Source: a bacterium
Lineage (GTDB): Bacteria > Patescibacteriota > Minisyncoccia > Moranbacterales > DUUL01
Assembly (NCBI GenBank): GCA_018675685.1
Contig: JABGXP010000020.1
Span: 37,680-101,679, forward strand
Length of the DNA stretch: 64,000 nucleotides
Direction of reading: 5' to 3'
Each line of letters begins with the position of its first letter. Within the stretch, counting starts at the first letter, position 1. The position numbers and the translations under genes are program-made. The notes below the pieces were generated by a model. It searched no databases. It saw only the letters and a program-made list of their open reading frames with translations, and was not told where the DNA came from. Positions 29,630 through 52,390 of the stretch are shown here, in pieces.

Positions 29630-32600
29630 ATGAAAAAAGGAAAGATTGCCCCAAGATATGACTTTGCGAAAATTGAAAAGAAATGGCAAAAAATTTGGCA
29701 AGAAAAGAAACTTTTCGAAATCAAGCTTGACGGTGCAAAAAAACCTTTTTATAACTTGATGATGTTTCCATACCCCTCAGCTGAAGGATTGCATGTGGGC
29801 GGCGTCTATACATACACAGGAGTTGATACCTTCGGACGCTTCAAGAGAATGCAAGGGTATGATGTGTTTGAGCCAATCGGATTAGATGGGTTTGGGATTC
29901 ATAGTGAGAACTATGCAATGAAAATCGGAGAACATATAGACGAGGTTTCGAAGAGAACGGAGAAGAATTTTTACAGGCAGCTAGGTTCAATTGGAAATAT
30001 GTTTGATTGGTCACGGACTGTGGAAACCTATAAACCAGAGTATTATCGCTGGACCCAATGGATATTCCTTCAGATGTTTAAGAAAGGTTTAGCATATCAA
30101 AAGAAAGCAAAAGTTAATTGGTGTCCTTCTTGTAAAACCGTTCTTTCGGATGAACAGGTGATTCAGGGACAATGTGAGAGATGTGACAGTTTTGTTGATA
30201 AACGAGAATTAAAACAATGGTTTTTTCGGATCACAAAATATGCTGATCGACTTTTGAAAAATTTGGACTGGATCGATTGGCCTGAGGATGTAAAAACAAA
30301 TCAGCGAAACTGGATTGGGCGAAGCGAAGGTGCGAATATTAAGTTTAAAGTTGAATATACTGGGGAAGAAAAGAGCGAATTAGAAGTTTTTACAACAAGA
30401 CCTGACACACTTTTTGGTGCAACATACATGGTGCTTGCGCCAGAGCATGAGCTTGTAAATAAAGCAAGGGAAGCTATTGAAAATTTTGATGAAGTCGAGA
30501 GGTATGCAAAGAAGGCGATCAGTAAGTCAGAGCAGGAAAGGAAGAACGATGAAAAAACTAAAACAGGAGTTGAATTGAAAGGTGTTTCGGCTATAAATCC
30601 TGTTAACGGTGATAAAATCCCAGTTTGGGTCGCTGACTATGTTTTGGCGGGCTATGGAACAGGAGCGATTATGGCAGTCCCAGCTCATGACCAGAGAGAT
30701 TTCGAATTTGCAAATAAATTTGGAATTGAGATTAGGCAAGTTGTGGCACCTTATTTTCCAGCTAAAAAAACAAGTGATCTTCCTGTTAGAGAGGACAGAA
30801 AAACCGTTAAAAGAAATGTCGTTTATGGAGTTGTTAAAAACCCAAAGACAGGGAAATTTTTAATGATTAGCTGGAAAGATTATCCAGGAAAGTCTTTTAT
30901 TATTGGTGGTGCTAAAGATAATGAAGATATAATAAATGCAGCTAGGCGCGAAGTCACGGAAGAGACTGGATATGCAAACTTGAAATTCGTTAAAAAATCT
31001 CAATTTGAAATCCACGCAAGTTATTTTGCTGTGCATAAAGATGAAAACCGATATGGAGTCATTAATTGGGTTTATTTTGAACTAGCAGATGAGACTAAGA
31101 AAGAAATTAAGAAGGAAGACGAAGGTAAGCATAAAATTTTCTGGGTCAAAGAAAAGGAAGTTGATAAAGAACTACCATATACGAATTATCATTATGCCTG
31201 GAAGACGCTTACTTCAGGAAAGGAGTGTGCTACTGACAATGGAATCATGATTAATTCCGGATTTTTAGATGGACTAAAAACTGATGAAGCTAAAACTAAA
31301 ATACTTAAGTGGCTTGAGAAAGAAAAAGTTGGGAAAAAATCAATCGATTTCAAATTACGAGATTGGTGTGTTTCTCGTCAAAGGTATTGGGGGCCTCCGA
31401 TTCCAATCGTATGGTGCAAGGAATGTGCGAAAAAGGAGAATAAAACAAAAGTTCTGTTTCTCCATGGTTTTGAAGGTAACGGTGAGTGTAATTGGTTTCC
31501 TGAATTAAAAAAGAAGTTAGAAAAAGCAGGTTGTGAAGTTTTTTCACCAACAATGCCATCACCTGAAAGTCCAAAATTCGAAGAGTGGATGAATGAAATC
31601 AAGGTCTACATGGACAAAATGGGAGAAAATGACGTGATTGTTGGTCACAGTCTTGGTTCTGGAGCTGCCATGCACTATCTTGGGCGAACAAATCAGAAAC
31701 TAAAAAAAGTATTTTTAGTTGCCGCCGCTGTTGGAGATGGTCCGCGAAGAGACTGGGACGCACTACGAAAAGCATGGCCAACTGCTGATGTTGATTCGTT
31801 AGAAAAGTTCTGGAAACATAAAATTGACTGGAAGTCAGTTAATAAAAGTGTCTTAAAAGAGACTAGGGTGATTTTCTCAAAAGACGATCCGTATATTGAC
31901 CCAGAACACTACAAACTTGTTGATTTGGATGATGTTGTTTTGGAAAAATGGGATGGATTAAAACACTTTATCACTGCTAGTTGTCCAAAACTAACTGACT
32001 ACATTACGGAGAATATCGTGGGAGATATTAGTCCTGTTGCAGTTCCTGTTCCAGACGAAAGTTTACCAGTCGAATTACCGCCAATGGAAAATTTTCTTCC
32101 CGAAGGAACTGGAAAGGGACCTTTGGCGCGGAACGAAGAGTTTGTGAAAACAACTTGTCCGGTTTGTGGCGCGGAGGCTGAAAGAGAAACTGATGTTTCA
32201 GATCCATTTGTAGACTCATCATGGTACTTTTTTCGATATCCATCAACTGAGTTCAATGACAATGCTTTTGATCCAGAGCGAACGAAAAAGTGGCTTCCAG
32301 TAGACAGTTATATTGGTGGAAAAGAACACACTGTGTTGCATTTACTCTATTCACGGTTTGTAACTATGGTTTTCAAGGATTTGGGGCTTATTGATTTTGA
32401 GGAGCCGTATAAAAGATTTTTTGGGCATGGACTTATCACAAAAGAAGGAGCGAAAATGTCGAAATCAAAGGGAAATGTTGTCAATCCAGATGATATGATT
32501 GAAAAATATGGTGCAGATACAACAAGAATGTATTTGAGATTTTTAGGAGACTTTTCACAAGGAGGGGATTGGAGAGACTCTGGCGTAGAGGGGATGAGCA

Positions 32601-33133
32601 AATTTGTAAAGAAGTTGTGGACTCTTTTTTCTGAGCTCAAAGGAGAAGGTGTTGGTCTAGGAAATCTTTCGATGATTGATAAAACGGTAAAGGTTGTTGG
32701 TGAAGACTTAGAAAGACTTTCATTTAACACAGCAGTCGCAAGACTTATGGAATTCACAAATTGGGCGAAGGAAAATAAAGCCGTTTTCAATAAAGAAGAA
32801 GCGGCGCAAGTGAGGAAAGTAATGGCACTCGTTTTTTCACCAATGATGCCTCATCTCGCAGAAGAATTTTGGGAAAAAATTGGAGGAAAAGATTCTGTTT
32901 GTAATCAATCTTGGCCAAAATATAATAAAGAGAATATTATTGATAGCGAAATCGAACTCGTAGTGCAGGTCAATGGGAAACTTCGAGATAAAGTTGTAGT
33001 TTCAAAGGATGTCAAAGAGGAAGAAGCTAAAAAATTAGCGCTTGAAAGTGAAAATGTACAAAAGTTCATAGAGCAAAAAGAGATAAAAAAAGTGATATAT
33101 GTTATCGGAAAACTTGTTAATATTGTTGTATAG
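29630..33133 (+). CDS. leuS: Leucyl-tRNA synthetase carrying two inserted domains: a Nudix hydrolase and an RBBP9/YdeN-like serine hydrolase
   Basis: LeuS core motifs are present: PYPSAEGLHVGG, the CP1 editing domain (TTRPDTLFG…GTGAIMAVPAHDQRDFEF), RDWCVSRQRYWGPPIPI, the zinc-knuckle CKEC…CPVC, DSSWYF and KMSKS. The protein is 1167 aa, compared with about 800–880 for typical bacterial LeuS. It has a Nudix box GGAKDNEDIINAARREVTEETGY and a GHSLG serine-hydrolase elbow. Confidence 0.9.
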   Translation: MKKGKIAPRYDFAKIEKKWQKIWQEKKLFEIKLDGAKKPFYNLMMFPYPSAEGLHVGGVYTYTGVDTFGRFKRMQGYDVFEPIGLDGFGIHSENYAMKIGEHIDEVSKRTEKNFYRQLGSIGNMFDWSRTVETYKPEYYRWTQWIFLQMFKKGLAYQKKAKVNWCPSCKTVLSDEQVIQGQCERCDSFVDKRELKQWFFRITKYADRLLKNLDWIDWPEDVKTNQRNWIGRSEGANIKFKVEYTGEEKSELEVFTTRPDTLFGATYMVLAPEHELVNKAREAIENFDEVERYAKKAISKSEQERKNDEKTKTGVELKGVSAINPVNGDKIPVWVADYVLAGYGTGAIMAVPAHDQRDFEFANKFGIEIRQVVAPYFPAKKTSDLPVREDRKTVKRNVVYGVVKNPKTGKFLMISWKDYPGKSFIIGGAKDNEDIINAARREVTEETGYANLKFVKKSQFEIHASYFAVHKDENRYGVINWVYFELADETKKEIKKEDEGKHKIFWVKEKEVDKELPYTNYHYAWKTLTSGKECATDNGIMINSGFLDGLKTDEAKTKILKWLEKEKVGKKSIDFKLRDWCVSRQRYWGPPIPIVWCKECAKKENKTKVLFLHGFEGNGECNWFPELKKKLEKAGCEVFSPTMPSPESPKFEEWMNEIKVYMDKMGENDVIVGHSLGSGAAMHYLGRTNQKLKKVFLVAAAVGDGPRRDWDALRKAWPTADVDSLEKFWKHKIDWKSVNKSVLKETRVIFSKDDPYIDPEHYKLVDLDDVVLEKWDGLKHFITASCPKLTDYITENIVGDISPVAVPVPDESLPVELPPMENFLPEGTGKGPLARNEEFVKTTCPVCGAEAERETDVSDPFVDSSWYFFRYPSTEFNDNAFDPERTKKWLPVDSYIGGKEHTVLHLLYSRFVTMVFKDLGLIDFEEPYKRFFGHGLITKEGAKMSKSKGNVVNPDDMIEKYGADTTRMYLRFLGDFSQGGDWRDSGVEGMSKFVKKLWTLFSELKGEGVGLGNLSMIDKTVKVVGEDLERLSFNTAVARLMEFTNWAKENKAVFNKEEAAQVRKVMALVFSPMMPHLAEEFWEKIGGKDSVCNQSWPKYNKENIIDSEIELVVQVNGKLRDKVVVSKDVKEEEAKKLALESENVQKFIEQKEIKKVIYVIGKLVNIVV

Positions 33134-36484: not shown

Positions 36485-38734
36485 ATGCATAAGACGATTT
36501 ATATCGACATAGACGAAGAAATAACCAGTGTTTTGGATAAAATAAGAGACGAAAAATCTAGTGAGATTTGCATTGTTGTTCCGAAGAACGCAGCCTTGAC
36601 ACAGGGAATTATCAATTTGAAATTGTTGAAAAAAGAGTCGGCTAAGTACGGAAAAACAATAGTAATCGCAACTAACGATCCCCAGGCTAGGAAAGTTATC
36701 AAGCGCCTTGAAATAAAAACACAAGAGATTGCAGAAACTGATTTGAAAGGGAGTAGCGAGTTAAAGAAAGTCGAAAAGACTGAAAAGGAAACTGAGCCAA
36801 TGGAAATCCAAGAGGAAGCAAACAATCAAACTGAAGAACTCAAAGGTGAAATCAAGATGACAAAAGAAGAATTTGTGACCAGCGATATAGGTTCAGAGAC
36901 ATTTTTTGATGGAATTATTCCGGAGCCAATCATTGATGATAAAAAGGAGAACAATATCAAAAGTGATATTAAAAAACAAGAACCAAATTTAATCTCACCG
37001 AATGAATTGCGCGAAGAATTATATCCCAGAAAAACAGATTTTAAGAATGAAAAAGTTCCACAGATAAAGCAGAAAAAAAATAAAGAGACCGTTTCTGCAA
37101 GTTTGGAAGAGATGTCTGATTTGAAGCCAGTAACAACCGTTGATAAACAAAACGACCTAATAAAAAGAGTTGATACAATGGACAGACAAGCTAAAACTGT
37201 CAGAAAAATCACTCCTTCAGAAGGGAAGAATTCTTCCGAAGCAAACCCAGCCATGAAAACAATTCCAAGAGGAGGCAAAACAGTTGTTTCTCGTTCAGTC
37301 GACTTTGGAGATAAAATGCAAGAATCAAAAAAAGGTCCAAGTAACGGAAGAGTATTAGCTACCAGTTTTGATTTGCAGAAGCAATCGTCCGAGGGAGGAG
37401 ATTTCAAGGTAACAGAAGAGCTCAATTTAAAAAGCTTTGATGAAGAAACTTCGAAGAAAGCAGAAGAATTTTTTGGAATAGAGCCCAAGAAACCAAAGGA
37501 GTCCATAAAAGAGATGAAAAAACAAGTAAAGAGGGTTGAGAAGGAAATTGTCCAGTCAAAAAACCAAAAGGGATTTATAAGGCGCTGGGGATTTGCTATT
37601 ATGATAGCCTTTTCATTTGTTGGAATTGGTGGTTTTACTGCTTGGGGGTATATGAATTATCCACAGGCTGAAATTAAAATTCATCCAAGAAAGAAAGATT
37701 TTTCTAAAGAGATTAAAATTTCAGTCAAAGAAGGCGCAGATAAAAGCGGCTTTGAGAAAGGTGTTATTCCAGGGCAATACAAGGAAATGACAGTTCAAAA
37801 GACAATGAAGTTCAATGCTACTGGTGAGACCTACGCGACTGATGATGGAAAAGCAAAAGGAAAAGTTACTATATATAATAAGTATTCAAAAAAAGAACAA
37901 CCCCTTGTTGCGACTACAAGAGTTCTCTCTAAAGAAGGTAAGCTGTTTAGACTTATTAAGGGCGTTACAGTTCCGGGAATGGAAAATGATAATCCTGGCA
38001 CAGTCGAAGCCGCTGTGATTGCTGATAAGCCAGGGGAGGAGTTTAATATCGGTTCTTCCGCTTTTACGATTGAGGGATTTAAGGGGAAACCACAGTATGA
38101 TAAATTTGAAGTGAAATCTTTCGAACCAATGACAGATGGAGGTTCTCCGGATTCAAACAAGAAATTATCCATGATCTCGATAGCTGATATCGCAAGGGCT
38201 CGTGAAAAAACAATTACAGCTTTAGAAAAAAGTCTTGAAGAAGAAGTGAAAGCCCAATTAGGAGTTGAAATGAGTGCGATGTTTGACTCAGTTGAAAAAG
38301 AAATTATAGGAGCTTCTTCTACTAATGAGGTCAAGGATGTCGTGAAAAGTTTTTCATACACTGTTGAGCAAAAAATTAAATTGATTACTTTTCTGACAGC
38401 AGATGTTAATTCAGCCGTACTTCTTGGCATGAGACAGGATGTTGAAGATGGCTATGAAATAGAAGAGTCTGAAAGTAATGTTACTTTCAAAAAAAGTATC
38501 ACTGATCTTGAAAAGAAAACAATGACGATGTATCTAGATTCCTCAGCCACAGCTTGGCCAATAATCGAAGCGGAGCAGTTAGCGCAAAGTATTGCTGAGA
38601 AAAAGGAAGAAGAAATTCGTGTTATCTTGCTAGGATATCCCACAATTGAAAAAATTGAATTTTTAGTGAAACCGTCCTGGTTAACAGGTCTGCCAATTTC
38701 AAAGGACAAGATTGATGTTTCAGTTGTGAAATAG
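36485..38734 (+). CDS. Hypothetical large bitopic membrane protein (cytoplasmic N-terminal domain, one TM helix, large extracytoplasmic C-terminal domain)
   Basis: 749 aa. One hydrophobic helix (…FAIMIAFSFVGIGGFTAWGY…). It lies immediately downstream of the ftsA-like gene. Confidence 0.45.
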   Translation: MHKTIYIDIDEEITSVLDKIRDEKSSEICIVVPKNAALTQGIINLKLLKKESAKYGKTIVIATNDPQARKVIKRLEIKTQEIAETDLKGSSELKKVEKTEKETEPMEIQEEANNQTEELKGEIKMTKEEFVTSDIGSETFFDGIIPEPIIDDKKENNIKSDIKKQEPNLISPNELREELYPRKTDFKNEKVPQIKQKKNKETVSASLEEMSDLKPVTTVDKQNDLIKRVDTMDRQAKTVRKITPSEGKNSSEANPAMKTIPRGGKTVVSRSVDFGDKMQESKKGPSNGRVLATSFDLQKQSSEGGDFKVTEELNLKSFDEETSKKAEEFFGIEPKKPKESIKEMKKQVKRVEKEIVQSKNQKGFIRRWGFAIMIAFSFVGIGGFTAWGYMNYPQAEIKIHPRKKDFSKEIKISVKEGADKSGFEKGVIPGQYKEMTVQKTMKFNATGETYATDDGKAKGKVTIYNKYSKKEQPLVATTRVLSKEGKLFRLIKGVTVPGMENDNPGTVEAAVIADKPGEEFNIGSSAFTIEGFKGKPQYDKFEVKSFEPMTDGGSPDSNKKLSMISIADIARAREKTITALEKSLEEEVKAQLGVEMSAMFDSVEKEIIGASSTNEVKDVVKSFSYTVEQKIKLITFLTADVNSAVLLGMRQDVEDGYEIEESESNVTFKKSITDLEKKTMTMYLDSSATAWPIIEAEQLAQSIAEKKEEEIRVILLGYPTIEKIEFLVKPSWLTGLPISKDKIDVSVVK

Positions 38735-50521: not shown

Positions 50522-52390
50522 TCATTCCATATTCCTTATTTCTTTGTGTTCCACTCCCTTTTTGTTTCCAACAAAGTCTTTCCAGAAAAGTCTTGGAATT
50601 TTTTCAATTATAATCTCTGGCTCTTTTTTATTTTGAGCAGCTTTGATTGCTTTCATTTTTAAGTGCGCAGTGACTTTTTCTTGATCAATTTTCATTTCAA
50701 AAACCATCAGTTGACCAAATTGTTTTTCAGAAATTTTTGAAAGAAATGGTCGAATTTCTTTTTTGACTGATTTTGTACCACCTCTTTTAGTCACTACAAA
50801 GAAGAGAGTGTTATGACCCTCCAGTTCAGACACTCTATCTGCTAATTTTGATTTTAAAGTGGGGTCCTTTTTTTGAGCTAAGAGATATTTAACGGGAGTT
50901 TTGTATTCGGGCTTGGTGTTAAAGACCACTATTCCTTGATTCCTTTGCTTGTAAAGATGATTAGTGACTCTTTCTAATTGCCCAAGTGTTATCCCGTCTT
51001 GCCTTTTTAGAATAAAAGTTCGGTTTGTTTCGATACTTTTAGTTTGAGAGTCAGCTTGTTCTTTAAACCAAAGTTTAGTTTCACGAATATTTAGTACTAG
51101 GAAAGCAAGAGCAATTAGCCCTACGATAAACCAGTAATACTTGGTAAGTTTTTTATTTTTAAATTCAGCTAAAAAAGAGAACCAAAGCGCTAACATAATA
51201 AAGGGAACTGGGAAGATCGGAGCAAAATAACGAGGACGCAACTGATATGCATTTGGAATTGTGATGATGAAGAACAAACCAGACCATAAGATGAGAATAA
51301 GTAAGAAATTCCTTTTTGAAGATTTCTTTTCTTTTCGGATTTGCCAAAAGGCCAGAAGAAGACTTCCAAATAGCAAAATTGTTCCAAAAGTAACGGTTAT
51401 TGGATCTGCTTTGTTTCCTTGGCGATGACTTTTACCGATAGTAATCAGTGAATATCCTTTGGCTTGTTCTCTGAAATTTCGAACTAATTTCTCCGAAAAA
51501 GTTTTAGTTTTTGATTTCTTCCCAGTCTCAAAAACTTCTTCGTCGATATCAGACCTGTCTGCTACAACTGAGATAAACCTTTTTGTATTATTCCAGTCAG
51601 TTTTTGTTTCGCTTAAAATGACAGGGAGGTAAAGAAATCCAATGATTAAAATGGCCACCAGAGAATAATAAGCAGCACTCTTTGTTAGAAATAATTTCCT
51701 TAAAGAAGTAAATTTTTCTCTAGTAAAAATTGAAGCCTTGCCCTCTAAAATAGCAAAGAAAAGAAGAAAAGCGCCAGAGGTCGCCGTCAGTGAAAAAAGT
51801 CCAAAAAAATGATATTGAGAAGCGATTGCAAAGGCGAATGCCCAAAGAGAAATCCAACCCAACTTATGTTTGAATTTTTTAGCAGCAGTAAATCTTAAGA
51901 GTCCATAGAGCGCAAGCAGGATGAAAAATGGAAGGGAGTTTGGATTCCAAGAAAAACGCGAATGTTGAATAATGATAAAAGAACCAGCATAAAGAGTAGT
52001 CGAGATAAGGGAGAGGTTTCTAGAGAAATAAAGCCTTAAAAATAGAAATAAGAGGGGAATCGTTAAGATTGAAAAAAGCAGATCTGGGTAGGCAAAAACA
52101 TCCGGCGACGTGCTTTGGAAAATTACGCCCGAAAGGTATTGAGTGTAATAATAAGCTGGCCCAAGACGCAAATAATCACCATCGGCCTTTGCAGCTCTTG
52201 GCCCAAGCAAGGGAAGTTCCCCAGGACCATTTTCAATTGCTAAAGAGAGAATAGTCGCGTCACGAGCCTGATCCCATTTAAAAAAAAGCCATTCGTGATA
52301 ATTATATGTTCGCACCCATATTGCCAAAAAAACAATAAGAGAAAGTGCGATTAATGTAAAACGAGCTTTTTTTGTGAGTTTTATTTTCAT
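50522..52390 (-). CDS. GT-C family (ArnT/PMT_2-like) membrane glycosyltransferase, paralog of 47456–49294
   Basis: …DQARD…LPLLGPRAAKADGD…NPNSLPFFILL…, 622 aa, polytopic. Confidence 0.6.
   Translation of the reverse strand: MKIKLTKKARFTLIALSLIVFLAIWVRTYNYHEWLFFKWDQARDATILSLAIENGPGELPLLGPRAAKADGDYLRLGPAYYYTQYLSGVIFQSTSPDVFAYPDLLFSILTIPLLFLFLRLYFSRNLSLISTTLYAGSFIIIQHSRFSWNPNSLPFFILLALYGLLRFTAAKKFKHKLGWISLWAFAFAIASQYHFFGLFSLTATSGAFLLFFAILEGKASIFTREKFTSLRKLFLTKSAAYYSLVAILIIGFLYLPVILSETKTDWNNTKRFISVVADRSDIDEEVFETGKKSKTKTFSEKLVRNFREQAKGYSLITIGKSHRQGNKADPITVTFGTILLFGSLLLAFWQIRKEKKSSKRNFLLILILWSGLFFIITIPNAYQLRPRYFAPIFPVPFIMLALWFSFLAEFKNKKLTKYYWFIVGLIALAFLVLNIRETKLWFKEQADSQTKSIETNRTFILKRQDGITLGQLERVTNHLYKQRNQGIVVFNTKPEYKTPVKYLLAQKKDPTLKSKLADRVSELEGHNTLFFVVTKRGGTKSVKKEIRPFLSKISEKQFGQLMVFEMKIDQEKVTAHLKMKAIKAAQNKKEPEIIIEKIPRLFWKDFVGNKKGVEHKEIRNME

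Follow-up and report, generated by a model that had tools for sequence, protein, structure and literature searches.

The window analysed here is a 64,000-nucleotide stretch of DNA (positions 37,680 to 101,679 of the forward strand of contig JABGXP010000020.1, GenBank assembly GCA_018675685.1) from a bacterium of the Moranbacterales, and our subject is its leuS gene, which encodes a leucyl-tRNA synthetase (LeuRS) with two additional enzyme domains in its interior, a Nudix hydrolase and an alpha/beta serine hydrolase of the YdeN/RBBP9 type. Positions 29630-33133 of the forward strand form a single open reading frame (ORF) of 1167 amino acids plus stop codon, without internal stop or frameshift, in agreement with a preliminary description that had been made from the letters of the sequence. 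The ORF scored 895.4 bits against the NCBIfam model leuS_bact TIGR00396 (cutoff 548.4) and is a LeuRS of the bacterial type by this measure; Pfam matches comprised tRNA-synt_1, the LeuRS editing domain PF13603 (213.8 bits), and Anticodon_1 (residues 1013-1131), and homology to Thermus thermophilus LeuRS (1h3n) extended over the full length (E 1.9e-210). In a Foldseek comparison of the full AlphaFold2 model with solved LeuRS structures, target-normalised template-modelling (TM) scores were 0.82-0.84, and none of the solved LeuRS structures matched in this search has comparable inserts. The host is almost certainly the chromosomal leuS of a Moraniibacteriota-like Patescibacteria bacterium (candidate phyla radiation, CPR), in which two autonomous folded enzyme domains, together ~365 residues, occupy surface loops of the connective peptides. 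Conservation is described below for an alignment of the 120 best LeuRS matches, a sample biased towards insert carriers. The features of the gene are as follows, with the evidence for each in brackets (Tt, residue numbering of T. thermophilus LeuRS; CP1, connective peptide 1; ZN-1 and ZN-2, the two zinc knuckles).

29630..33133, forward strand: leuS ORF, bacterial-type LeuRS with two nested domains (Pfam, NCBIfam, 1h3n alignment, Foldseek)
29792..29803, forward strand: HVGG, the equivalent of the HIGH motif, residues 55-58 (alignment of relatives)
30122..30184, forward strand: ZN-1 zinc-binding cysteines CPSC...CERC, residues 165-185 (120-sequence alignment)
30305..30748, forward strand: CP1 editing domain, part 1, residues 226-373 (PF13603 profile positions 1-144)
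30749..31231, forward strand: insert 1, Nudix hydrolase domain, residues 374-534, site B (PF00293, Nudix box)
31232..31429, forward strand: C-terminal part of CP1 and return to the catalytic core, residues 535-600 (aligns with Tt 378-443)
31430..32041, forward strand: insert 2, YdeN/RBBP9-type alpha/beta serine hydrolase, residues 601-804, site C (PF06821, 1uxo)
32042..32665, forward strand: second half of the catalytic domain, residues 805-1012 (aligns with Tt 445-578, then from Tt 635)
32666..33130, forward strand: anticodon-binding and C-terminal tRNA-binding domains, residues 1013-1167 (Anticodon_1; Tt alignment to the C-terminus)

Insertion points were mapped by HMMER alignment of the ORF to 1h3n. 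Four blocks aligned (query residues 9-373 with Tt 3-363, 535-600 with Tt 378-443, 805-937 with Tt 445-578, and 940-1167 with Tt 635-876), so that each insert is flanked by LeuRS sequence, as had been claimed. Insert 1 takes the place of a 14-residue loop of the T. thermophilus enzyme, and insert 2 lies between Tt443 and Tt445, preceded by WCKEC and followed by VPVPDE; its earlier placement inside the zinc knuckle after WCKEC was therefore correct, and the coordinates first proposed for both inserts fell within a few bases of the mapped ones. The insert-free relatives P0040, P0041, P0043, and P0045 (818-826 residues, 68-70% identical) bridge both gaps exactly, and site C when empty consists of six residues. 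On one point the preliminary description needs revision, namely its placement of the Nudix domain after CP1. The editing-domain Pfam match is split by insert 1, with its first stretch covering profile positions 1-144 of 185, and the crystallised stand-alone CP1 constructs 2ajg, 3pz5, and 4k47 run 45-55 residues past the insertion point. Thus, by these alignments, the Nudix domain is nested inside CP1. Structure prediction, which had been suggested as a check, was carried out using AlphaFold2 with the 120-sequence alignment as input and gave a mean predicted local distance difference test score (pLDDT) of 91.7 and a predicted TM score (pTM) of 0.80, with both inserts above 90 in pLDDT; in this model, short linkers connect the core to the inserts, which are placed at the tips of hairpins and the turns of knuckles. 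We also considered an intein and rejected it: Pfam gave no Hint, intein, LAGLIDADG, or endonuclease match, and the junctions (...VAPY|FPAK... for insert 1; ...KEC|AKKE...SPVA|VPVP for insert 2) lack the Cys/Ser start and the His-Asn-Cys/Ser/Thr end of inteins, as the first reading of the sequence had noted.

Insert 1 matched the NUDIX family PF00293 at residues 395-516 (41.4 bits, cutoff 21.1, E 1.8e-10), and the canonical Nudix box reported for it is present at residues 426-448 (nucleotides 30905-30973; GGAKDNEDIINAARREVTEETGY), which match GX5EX7REUXEEXGU with G426, E432, R440, E441, E444, E445, and G447 at the defining positions. Modelled alone, the domain reached a pLDDT of 92.7, and it has the alpha/beta/alpha sandwich fold of the Nudix superfamily. 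The box was strict in 47 of 55 homologous cassettes; in seven of the eight others, judged by eye, the loop is one residue shorter (Gx4E) and the REx2EE core is kept, and in one, P0120, the box is degenerate. Fold neighbours include hydrolases of diadenosine polyphosphates (Ap(n)A), among them Rv2985, Ndx1, and hydrolases of diadenosine tetraphosphate (Ap4A), as well as DIPP and RppH. A Y/F-F pair is conserved 17-18 residues past the box, and an aromatic residue about 17 residues past the box is the signature of the Ap(n)A-hydrolase subgroup of Nudix enzymes. No NCBIfam or PDB sequence match of the Nudix domain was better than E 1e-4, and no match was at the level of a subfamily.

Insert 2 matched Ser_hydrolase PF06821 at residues 609-760 (53.8 bits, cutoff 22, E 3e-14), and its closest solved relatives are Bacillus subtilis YdeN (1uxo, E 1.7e-14) and RBBP9 (E 1.4e-5), which upholds the family first proposed for it. 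The predicted key residues are the oxyanion pair H612-G613, the nucleophile S674 (in GHSLG), D753, and H779. Across 55 embedded hydrolase domains, the serine and the histidine were each found in all 55, the aspartate in 51 with glutamate in three more, and the HG oxyanion motif in 53. An RDW...FW motif in the lid region is particular to the LeuRS-embedded subfamily at site C, and the lid is not conserved across embedded subfamilies. RBBP9 is reportedly a valacyclovir-activating enzyme, according to the title of a 2020 report by Shenoy (cited in PMC7730578). It acts as a serine aminopeptidase on aminoacyl-aminomethylcoumarin (AMC) substrates, for which a free alpha-amine is needed, with Glu108 and Tyr99 anchoring the substrate alpha-amine (PMC8866121); the alignment between insert 2 and RBBP9 ends before this anchor region (Glu108). 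YdeN has been proposed to act on soluble esters or thioesters, and its relative ML-005 is a short-chain esterase (PMC6119806).

The LeuRS core surrounding the inserts appears intact in sequence, with the HIGH equivalent, KMSKS, both knuckles, the editing residues, and the anticodon-binding and C-terminal domains all present. The first part of CP1 holds TTRPDT (residues 255-260) and AHDQRD (residues 352-357), and the CP1 editing residues T255, T260, D354, and D357 were invariant in 120 of 120 relatives. A beta-hairpin at residues 231-255, assigned by DSSP from the model, corresponds to insertion site A of relatives and is empty in the query. The first CxxC of ZN-2 is WCKEC (residues 595-599) at the end of the 535-600 segment, and residues 805-1012 hold VPVPDE, the second ZN-2 CxxC (CPVCG, residues 843-847), and KMSKS (residues 942-946). 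The query KMSKS is exact, and its K942, S944, and K945 were invariant in the 120-sequence alignment; C165 and C182 of ZN-1 were likewise invariant, C168 and C185 nearly so, and C596 and C599 of ZN-2 nearly invariant, with four cysteines conserved per knuckle. In the HIGH motif, the second histidine is replaced, the query reading HVGG. The position is H[VI]G[GNS] in 17 aligned relatives, conservation of H55 and of G57 reaches 90% or more in the 120, and the second histidine is absent from all 120 CPR LeuRS, with or without inserts; HVGG is therefore, on this comparison, a lineage trait rather than an effect of the inserts. The leucine-specific domain (Tt 578-634) is also absent, the corresponding segment (query residues 937-942, window positions 32438-32455) being 6-7 residues in 120 of 120 relatives. 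The CPR LeuRS core as aligned here is therefore minimal, at about 806-830 residues apart from the cassettes.

That the long ORF is an assembly chimera, or conceals a frameshift and is not the true product, is so improbable as to be negligible. The same ORF occurs on ENA contig ERZ27237544 k141_177839, which may not be an assembly independent of the window, and the insert junctions are conserved among relatives. A search of related genomes, as had been proposed earlier, found the hydrolase in frame inside leuS in at least 10 GTDB species genomes, six of the ten also carrying the Nudix domain; these ten come from one conserved sequence pattern and are not a census. In all ten, which stem from different studies, the N-terminal part, the Nudix domain where present, the middle part, the hydrolase, and the C-terminal part are contiguous. 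Dozens of proteins with the same in-frame architecture, from independent Patescibacteria assemblies, are present in NCBI, JGI, ENA, and Logan data, where they bear unspecific names ('class I tRNA ligase family protein', 'leucine--tRNA ligase', and 'alpha/beta fold hydrolase' among them). A compositional anomaly of the inserts was considered and rejected, their GC content (0.35 and 0.39) being native to the gene and the window (0.36), and searches for terminal inverted repeats or target-site duplications gave short matches at chance level, none at the insert borders. The ten genomes are labelled Moraniibacteriota, Buchananbacteria, Magasanikbacteria, and Patescibacteria UBA2772, plus three 'Bdellovibrionales'. 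The latter (L008, L010, and L011; CAZDHE01, CAYFUG01, and CAYMNT01), titled 'uncultured Bdellovibrionales bacterium', carry leuS genes with inserts that are 50-73% identical to the query and of the Patescibacteria type, and because of this we suspect a taxonomic mislabel or mixed bins in these three metagenome-assembled genomes.

In the 120 relatives, at least five insertion sites were found, listed here in query numbering with their contents.

Site A, residues 230-254: tip of the first CP1 hairpin; hydrolase, Ham1-like
Site A2, residues 254-336: within CP1; GIY-YIG
Site B, residues 371-538: within CP1; Nudix, nucleotidyltransferase, hydrolase
Site C, residues 599-807: ZN-2 knuckle; hydrolase, weak ASCH-like
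Site D, residues 807-937: second half of the core; 152-residue insert without family assignment (P0074)

Using a hidden Markov model built from site-C hydrolases, we placed the hydrolase family at site A in 21 proteins, at site B in one, and at site C in 33; P0112 has two copies (A and C), as does P0053 (B and C). The Nudix domain occupies site B in 56 of the 120, and the combination seen in the query, Nudix at B with hydrolase at C, was found in 12. Other cassettes are a Ham1-like NTP pyrophosphatase domain at site A (P0053 and P0061), a GIY-YIG nuclease domain in frame within CP1 at site A2 (P0028 and P0030, 57-61 bits), and a nucleotidyltransferase (PF14907/PF10706) at site B (P0072). At site C of P0039 there is an ASCH-like match that is sub-threshold (E 0.0016, under the gathering cutoff), and in P0029-type proteins a segment of ~135 residues after the hydrolase, which has no Pfam match, resembles by eye the ASCH-like domain of P0039; further inserts of 125-160 residues without family assignment occupy the same loops. 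By these assignments, CPR LeuRS has five or more loop sites that take up cassettes from an exchangeable set, of which the query shows one combination.

Gain and loss were counted by Fitch parsimony on the 120 tips of a LeuRS-core tree, a neighbour-joining tree without bootstrap support that recombination may distort, with the following results.

Hydrolase at site A: 21 tips, minimum of 12 changes
Nudix at site B: 56 tips, minimum of 16 changes
Hydrolase at site C: 33 tips, minimum of 11 changes

Sister LeuRS proteins differ in state, as in P0002 (B and C) versus P0005 (C), P0003 (B and C) versus P0006 (C), and P0012 (B) versus P0041 (none). The DNA of P0012 and P0041 is mostly 78-95% identical outside site B, where P0041 (L002:9100-9200), the nearest relative of P0012 to lack inserts, has a short low-complexity linker of AATCAAAA repeats at the position of the P0012 Nudix cassette; this linker could be a deletion scar or slippage-prone filler. 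Because presence is patchy even between LeuRS genes ~90% identical in DNA, the inserts are, as far as this distribution shows, dispensable for LeuRS function.

The two domains differ in how closely they follow their host. Compared to P0002, the query core blocks are 92, 81, 76, 89, and 76% identical and the hydrolase 69%, and the Nudix domain is 26% identical; the query Nudix domain is 55% identical to that of P0012, though the P0012 core is more distant than the P0002 core. Over 1485 pairs, the Spearman correlation between Nudix and core identity was 0.08, core identities of 80-90% were accompanied by Nudix identities anywhere in the range of 19-96%, and at least four cassette types are common to different LeuRS clades. 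On these comparisons, Nudix cassettes undergo exchange that does not follow the host gene. Inheritance of the site-C hydrolase is more vertical (rho 0.5). In the domain tree, site-A and site-C hydrolases are interleaved, and embedded subfamilies are about as near to free-standing hydrolases (30-42% identity) as to one another, a pattern that is compatible with repeated capture of the hydrolase into LeuRS. The ratio of nonsynonymous to synonymous substitutions (dN/dS) between L014 and L015 was 0.085 in the hydrolase, against 0.087 in the core, and the ratio of the corresponding proportions (pN/pS) between L008 and L009 was 0.19 and 0.09, respectively; synonymous sites are saturated in every DNA pair, which makes these values a qualitative sign of purifying selection, and one that concerns the hydrolase rather than the Nudix domain. 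With this reservation, purifying selection on the hydrolase in orthologous pairs resembles that on the core.

An exhaustive phmmer search of insert 2 against 1.84 billion representative proteins gave 1792 matches at E<=1e-3, 342 of them at E<=1e-10. The top matches were LeuRS-embedded, followed by free-standing proteins of 180-200 residues; one of these, P0130, is a true separate gene whose product is 40% identical to insert 2. Among the matches listed (the best 150), 35 were longer than 260 residues, and 27 of these were LeuRS or LeuRS fragments; no other synthetase hosting the hydrolase was present among the 35. By these matches, the association of the hydrolase with synthetases is specific to LeuRS. 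The protein P0226 (L019:5001-6788) is the product of a complete stand-alone gene that combines a NUDIX domain, a YdeN-like Ser_hydrolase, and a second alpha/beta hydrolase without LeuRS parts, and the gene is preceded by an overlapping alpha/beta-hydrolase gene; its domain content hints that the Nudix and YdeN-like hydrolase families may cooperate also apart from LeuRS. The free-standing Nudix protein that best matched the LeuRS Nudix profile (P0269, 103 bits; L005:2431-6528) is encoded ~2 kb from a gene for a CCA-adding enzyme, on the opposite strand, in an arrangement that recurs in three samples and is too weak a link to interpret.

We tentatively favour a reading, to which we give somewhat less than an even chance, in which the inserts are tethered accessory hydrolases acting on chemistry generated at LeuRS, because the hydrolase is associated specifically with LeuRS and at three of its loops, the family chemistry fits, and the active sites are conserved. 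Purifying selection on the hydrolase, the Ap(n)A hydrolases among the fold neighbours of the Nudix domain, and the stand-alone fusion P0226 lend further support. Ap4A and homocysteine thiolactone arise as by-products of synthetase reactions. The characterised relatives of the hydrolase either take an alpha-aminoacyl group with a free amine off an amide or ester leaving group or act on small esters or thioesters in solution, so it would cleave aminoacyl esters or thioesters; candidate substrates are homocysteine thiolactone, free aminoacyl esters, and tRNA(Leu) whose 3' end is damaged or mis-acylated. Targets of the Nudix domain would be adenylate-derived compounds with a pyrophosphate bond, of the Ap(n)A or aminoacyl-AMP type. 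As the hydrolase occurs at three different loops, tethering, and with it local concentration, probably matters more than exact geometry. Several results weigh against this reading. The inserts were first suggested to be possible extra proofreading modules; as all 120 relatives have retained the canonical editing residues of CP1, they do not stand in for a lost editing site, and no proofreading gap is evident in these sequences. The inserts are dispensable, as described above; a simple clean-up role in housekeeping would not predict the turnover of the Nudix cassettes; and neither insert matches an NCBIfam model at equivalog level. The best-150 list from which specificity for LeuRS was read is, in addition, biased to the query subfamily, and hosts of more distant hydrolases could be missed.

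The inserts might instead be functionally independent, ordinary housekeeping enzymes of a small genome that are hosted in permissive loops of an essential, constitutively expressed protein for the sake of co-expression and gene economy, with no link to leucylation, an explanation that we hold possible and on balance unlikely. In class Ia synthetases, the connective peptides are well known for loops that tolerate insertions, CP1 itself being one such insertion. The position of the inserts at hairpin tips and knuckle turns with short linkers, their dispensability, the free-standing relatives of both domains (P0130 and P0269), and the generic nucleotide house-cleaning character of the Ham1 and nucleotidyltransferase cassettes all agree with hosting, whereas LeuRS is the only synthetase with the hydrolase among the 35 listed matches longer than 260 residues, and occurrence of the hydrolase at three LeuRS sites argues for a partner-specific association over random hosting. 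Far less probable, in our estimate, are selfish or neutral in-frame insertions, intein-like hitchhikers without splicing that spread by recombination or homing and are tolerated. Patchiness between near-identical alleles, the exactness of the empty sites (six residues at site C), and the in-frame GIY-YIG domain of P0028 and P0030 would suit such elements, which we nevertheless regard as very unlikely: the catalytic residues of both domains are kept across copies that are 20-40% identical and the hydrolase is under purifying selection, which together argue against junk or purely selfish insertions, and there are no Hint or intein domains, splice-junction residues, flanking direct or inverted repeats, or departures from native composition.

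A further explanation, improbable overall, treats the cassettes as countermeasures embedded in the target itself, which would shield LeuRS or tRNA(Leu) from toxins in an arms race that drives turnover and diversity; as candidate adversaries we name agrocin 84-type mimics of aminoacyl-adenylates, along with enzymes by which the 3' end of the tRNA or the aminoacyl group is modified. This explanation accounts best for the turnover of Nudix cassettes, to which the absence of correlation between Nudix and host identity, the four or more cassette types that cross LeuRS clades, and the parsimony counts (11-16 gains or losses for each character over the 120 tips) all speak. The repertoire is varied and aimed throughout at nucleotides or esters, natural Trojan-horse inhibitors directed at LeuRS and a resistant LeuRS are known (PDB 3zgz TM84, 5ah5 AgnB2), and NCBIfam contains an isoleucyl-tRNA synthetase (IleRS) with a GNAT domain, a precedent in that a class Ia synthetase has there acquired a further enzyme domain. 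Set against this, neither insert matches any PADLOC defence model, the neighbours of leuS are housekeeping genes without toxin, immunity, or mobile-element genes among them, evolution of the site-C hydrolase is largely vertical, and no known inhibitor is a substrate of these folds. In its boldest form, for which we see little probability, CPR LeuRS would be a platform for rapidly exchanged hydrolase cassettes, a target-built immunity that destroys adenylate-mimic inhibitors or repairs toxin-modified tRNA(Leu) 3' ends at the enzyme; if this were true, the arms race would explain the trans-clade polymorphism of the cassettes.

The genes around leuS in the window are ordinary chromosomal ones, encoding PBP1, GroEL, LepA, Dxs, FtsA, RtcB, and glycosyltransferases, and no toxin, immunity, or mobile-element genes were seen beside leuS. 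Two large ORFs, at 36485-38734 on the forward strand (749 residues) and 50522-52390 on the reverse strand (622 residues), had no Pfam match at E up to 1e-5.

To our knowledge, appended or inserted domains are the main route to new synthetase functions, and catalytic additions in bacteria are rare. The preliminary description had supposed the architecture to be undescribed, and this stands insofar as a full-text literature search turned up no account of Nudix or alpha/beta-hydrolase domains inserted into a LeuRS, nor of CPR LeuRS; the architecture is nevertheless not unique, being common in public Patescibacteria data under generic names. The query is an essential synthetase with two extra, apparently active hydrolases, one of them nested in the editing domain, and in the LeuRS family to which it belongs, such cassettes come and go, shift from loop to loop, and are traded among alleles. 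Should the modules act on LeuRS chemistry, as in the tethered-hydrolase reading that we favour, organisms with minimal genomes would have a further, new level of quality control in translation or of by-product clearance; if they are immunity modules, they would represent a new defence principle. The insertion sites also form a natural map of loops that accept domains of 150-370 residues, which is useful for synthetase engineering, and the system offers testable substrates for the poorly characterised YdeN family.

Compared to bacterial LeuRS enzymes of known structure (T. thermophilus 1h3n/2bte and Escherichia coli 4aq7), the query shares KMSKS, ZN-1, ZN-2, the CP1 editing residues, and the anticodon-binding and C-terminal domains, and differs in its two nested enzyme domains, its lack of the leucine-specific domain, and the HVGG form of HIGH. 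Like CP1 of class Ia synthetases, the inserts are hydrolytic domains placed in the connective-peptide region of the Rossmann fold; CP1, however, is ancient and near universal and has a defined role in post-transfer editing, whereas the query inserts occur patchily in a restricted lineage, their Nudix and alpha/beta-hydrolase folds are unrelated to that of CP1, and one of the two is nested in CP1 itself. The IleRS with an N-acetyltransferase domain (NCBIfam NF040702) is also a class Ia synthetase with an extra enzyme domain, and NCBIfam has a dedicated model for this IleRS and none for LeuRS with the present inserts; both synthetase and domain (GNAT) are different, and the query score against NF040702 (59 bits, cutoff 1999) reflects the shared core only. 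As with inteins, the inserts lie in frame in an essential gene, are patchy among close relatives, and leave exact empty sites; unlike inteins, they have the conserved active sites of hydrolases, and we predict that the mature protein retains them. The Nudix insert is 14-24% identical to Ndx1 (1vc8), Rv2985 (9cxx), and RppH (6d13), and it differs from them further in being nested in CP1. Insert 2 has the HG oxyanion motif, the Ser-Asp-His triad, and the small, lid-less alpha/beta-hydrolase form (~190 residues) of YdeN and RBBP9 (PF06821), from which it differs in being embedded in another enzyme. A role in extra aminoacyl-ester hydrolysis would be analogous to that of AlaX, YbaK/ProX, and DTD, which are separate proteins of unrelated folds with demonstrated tRNA substrates, whereas the query is known from its sequence and a structural model.

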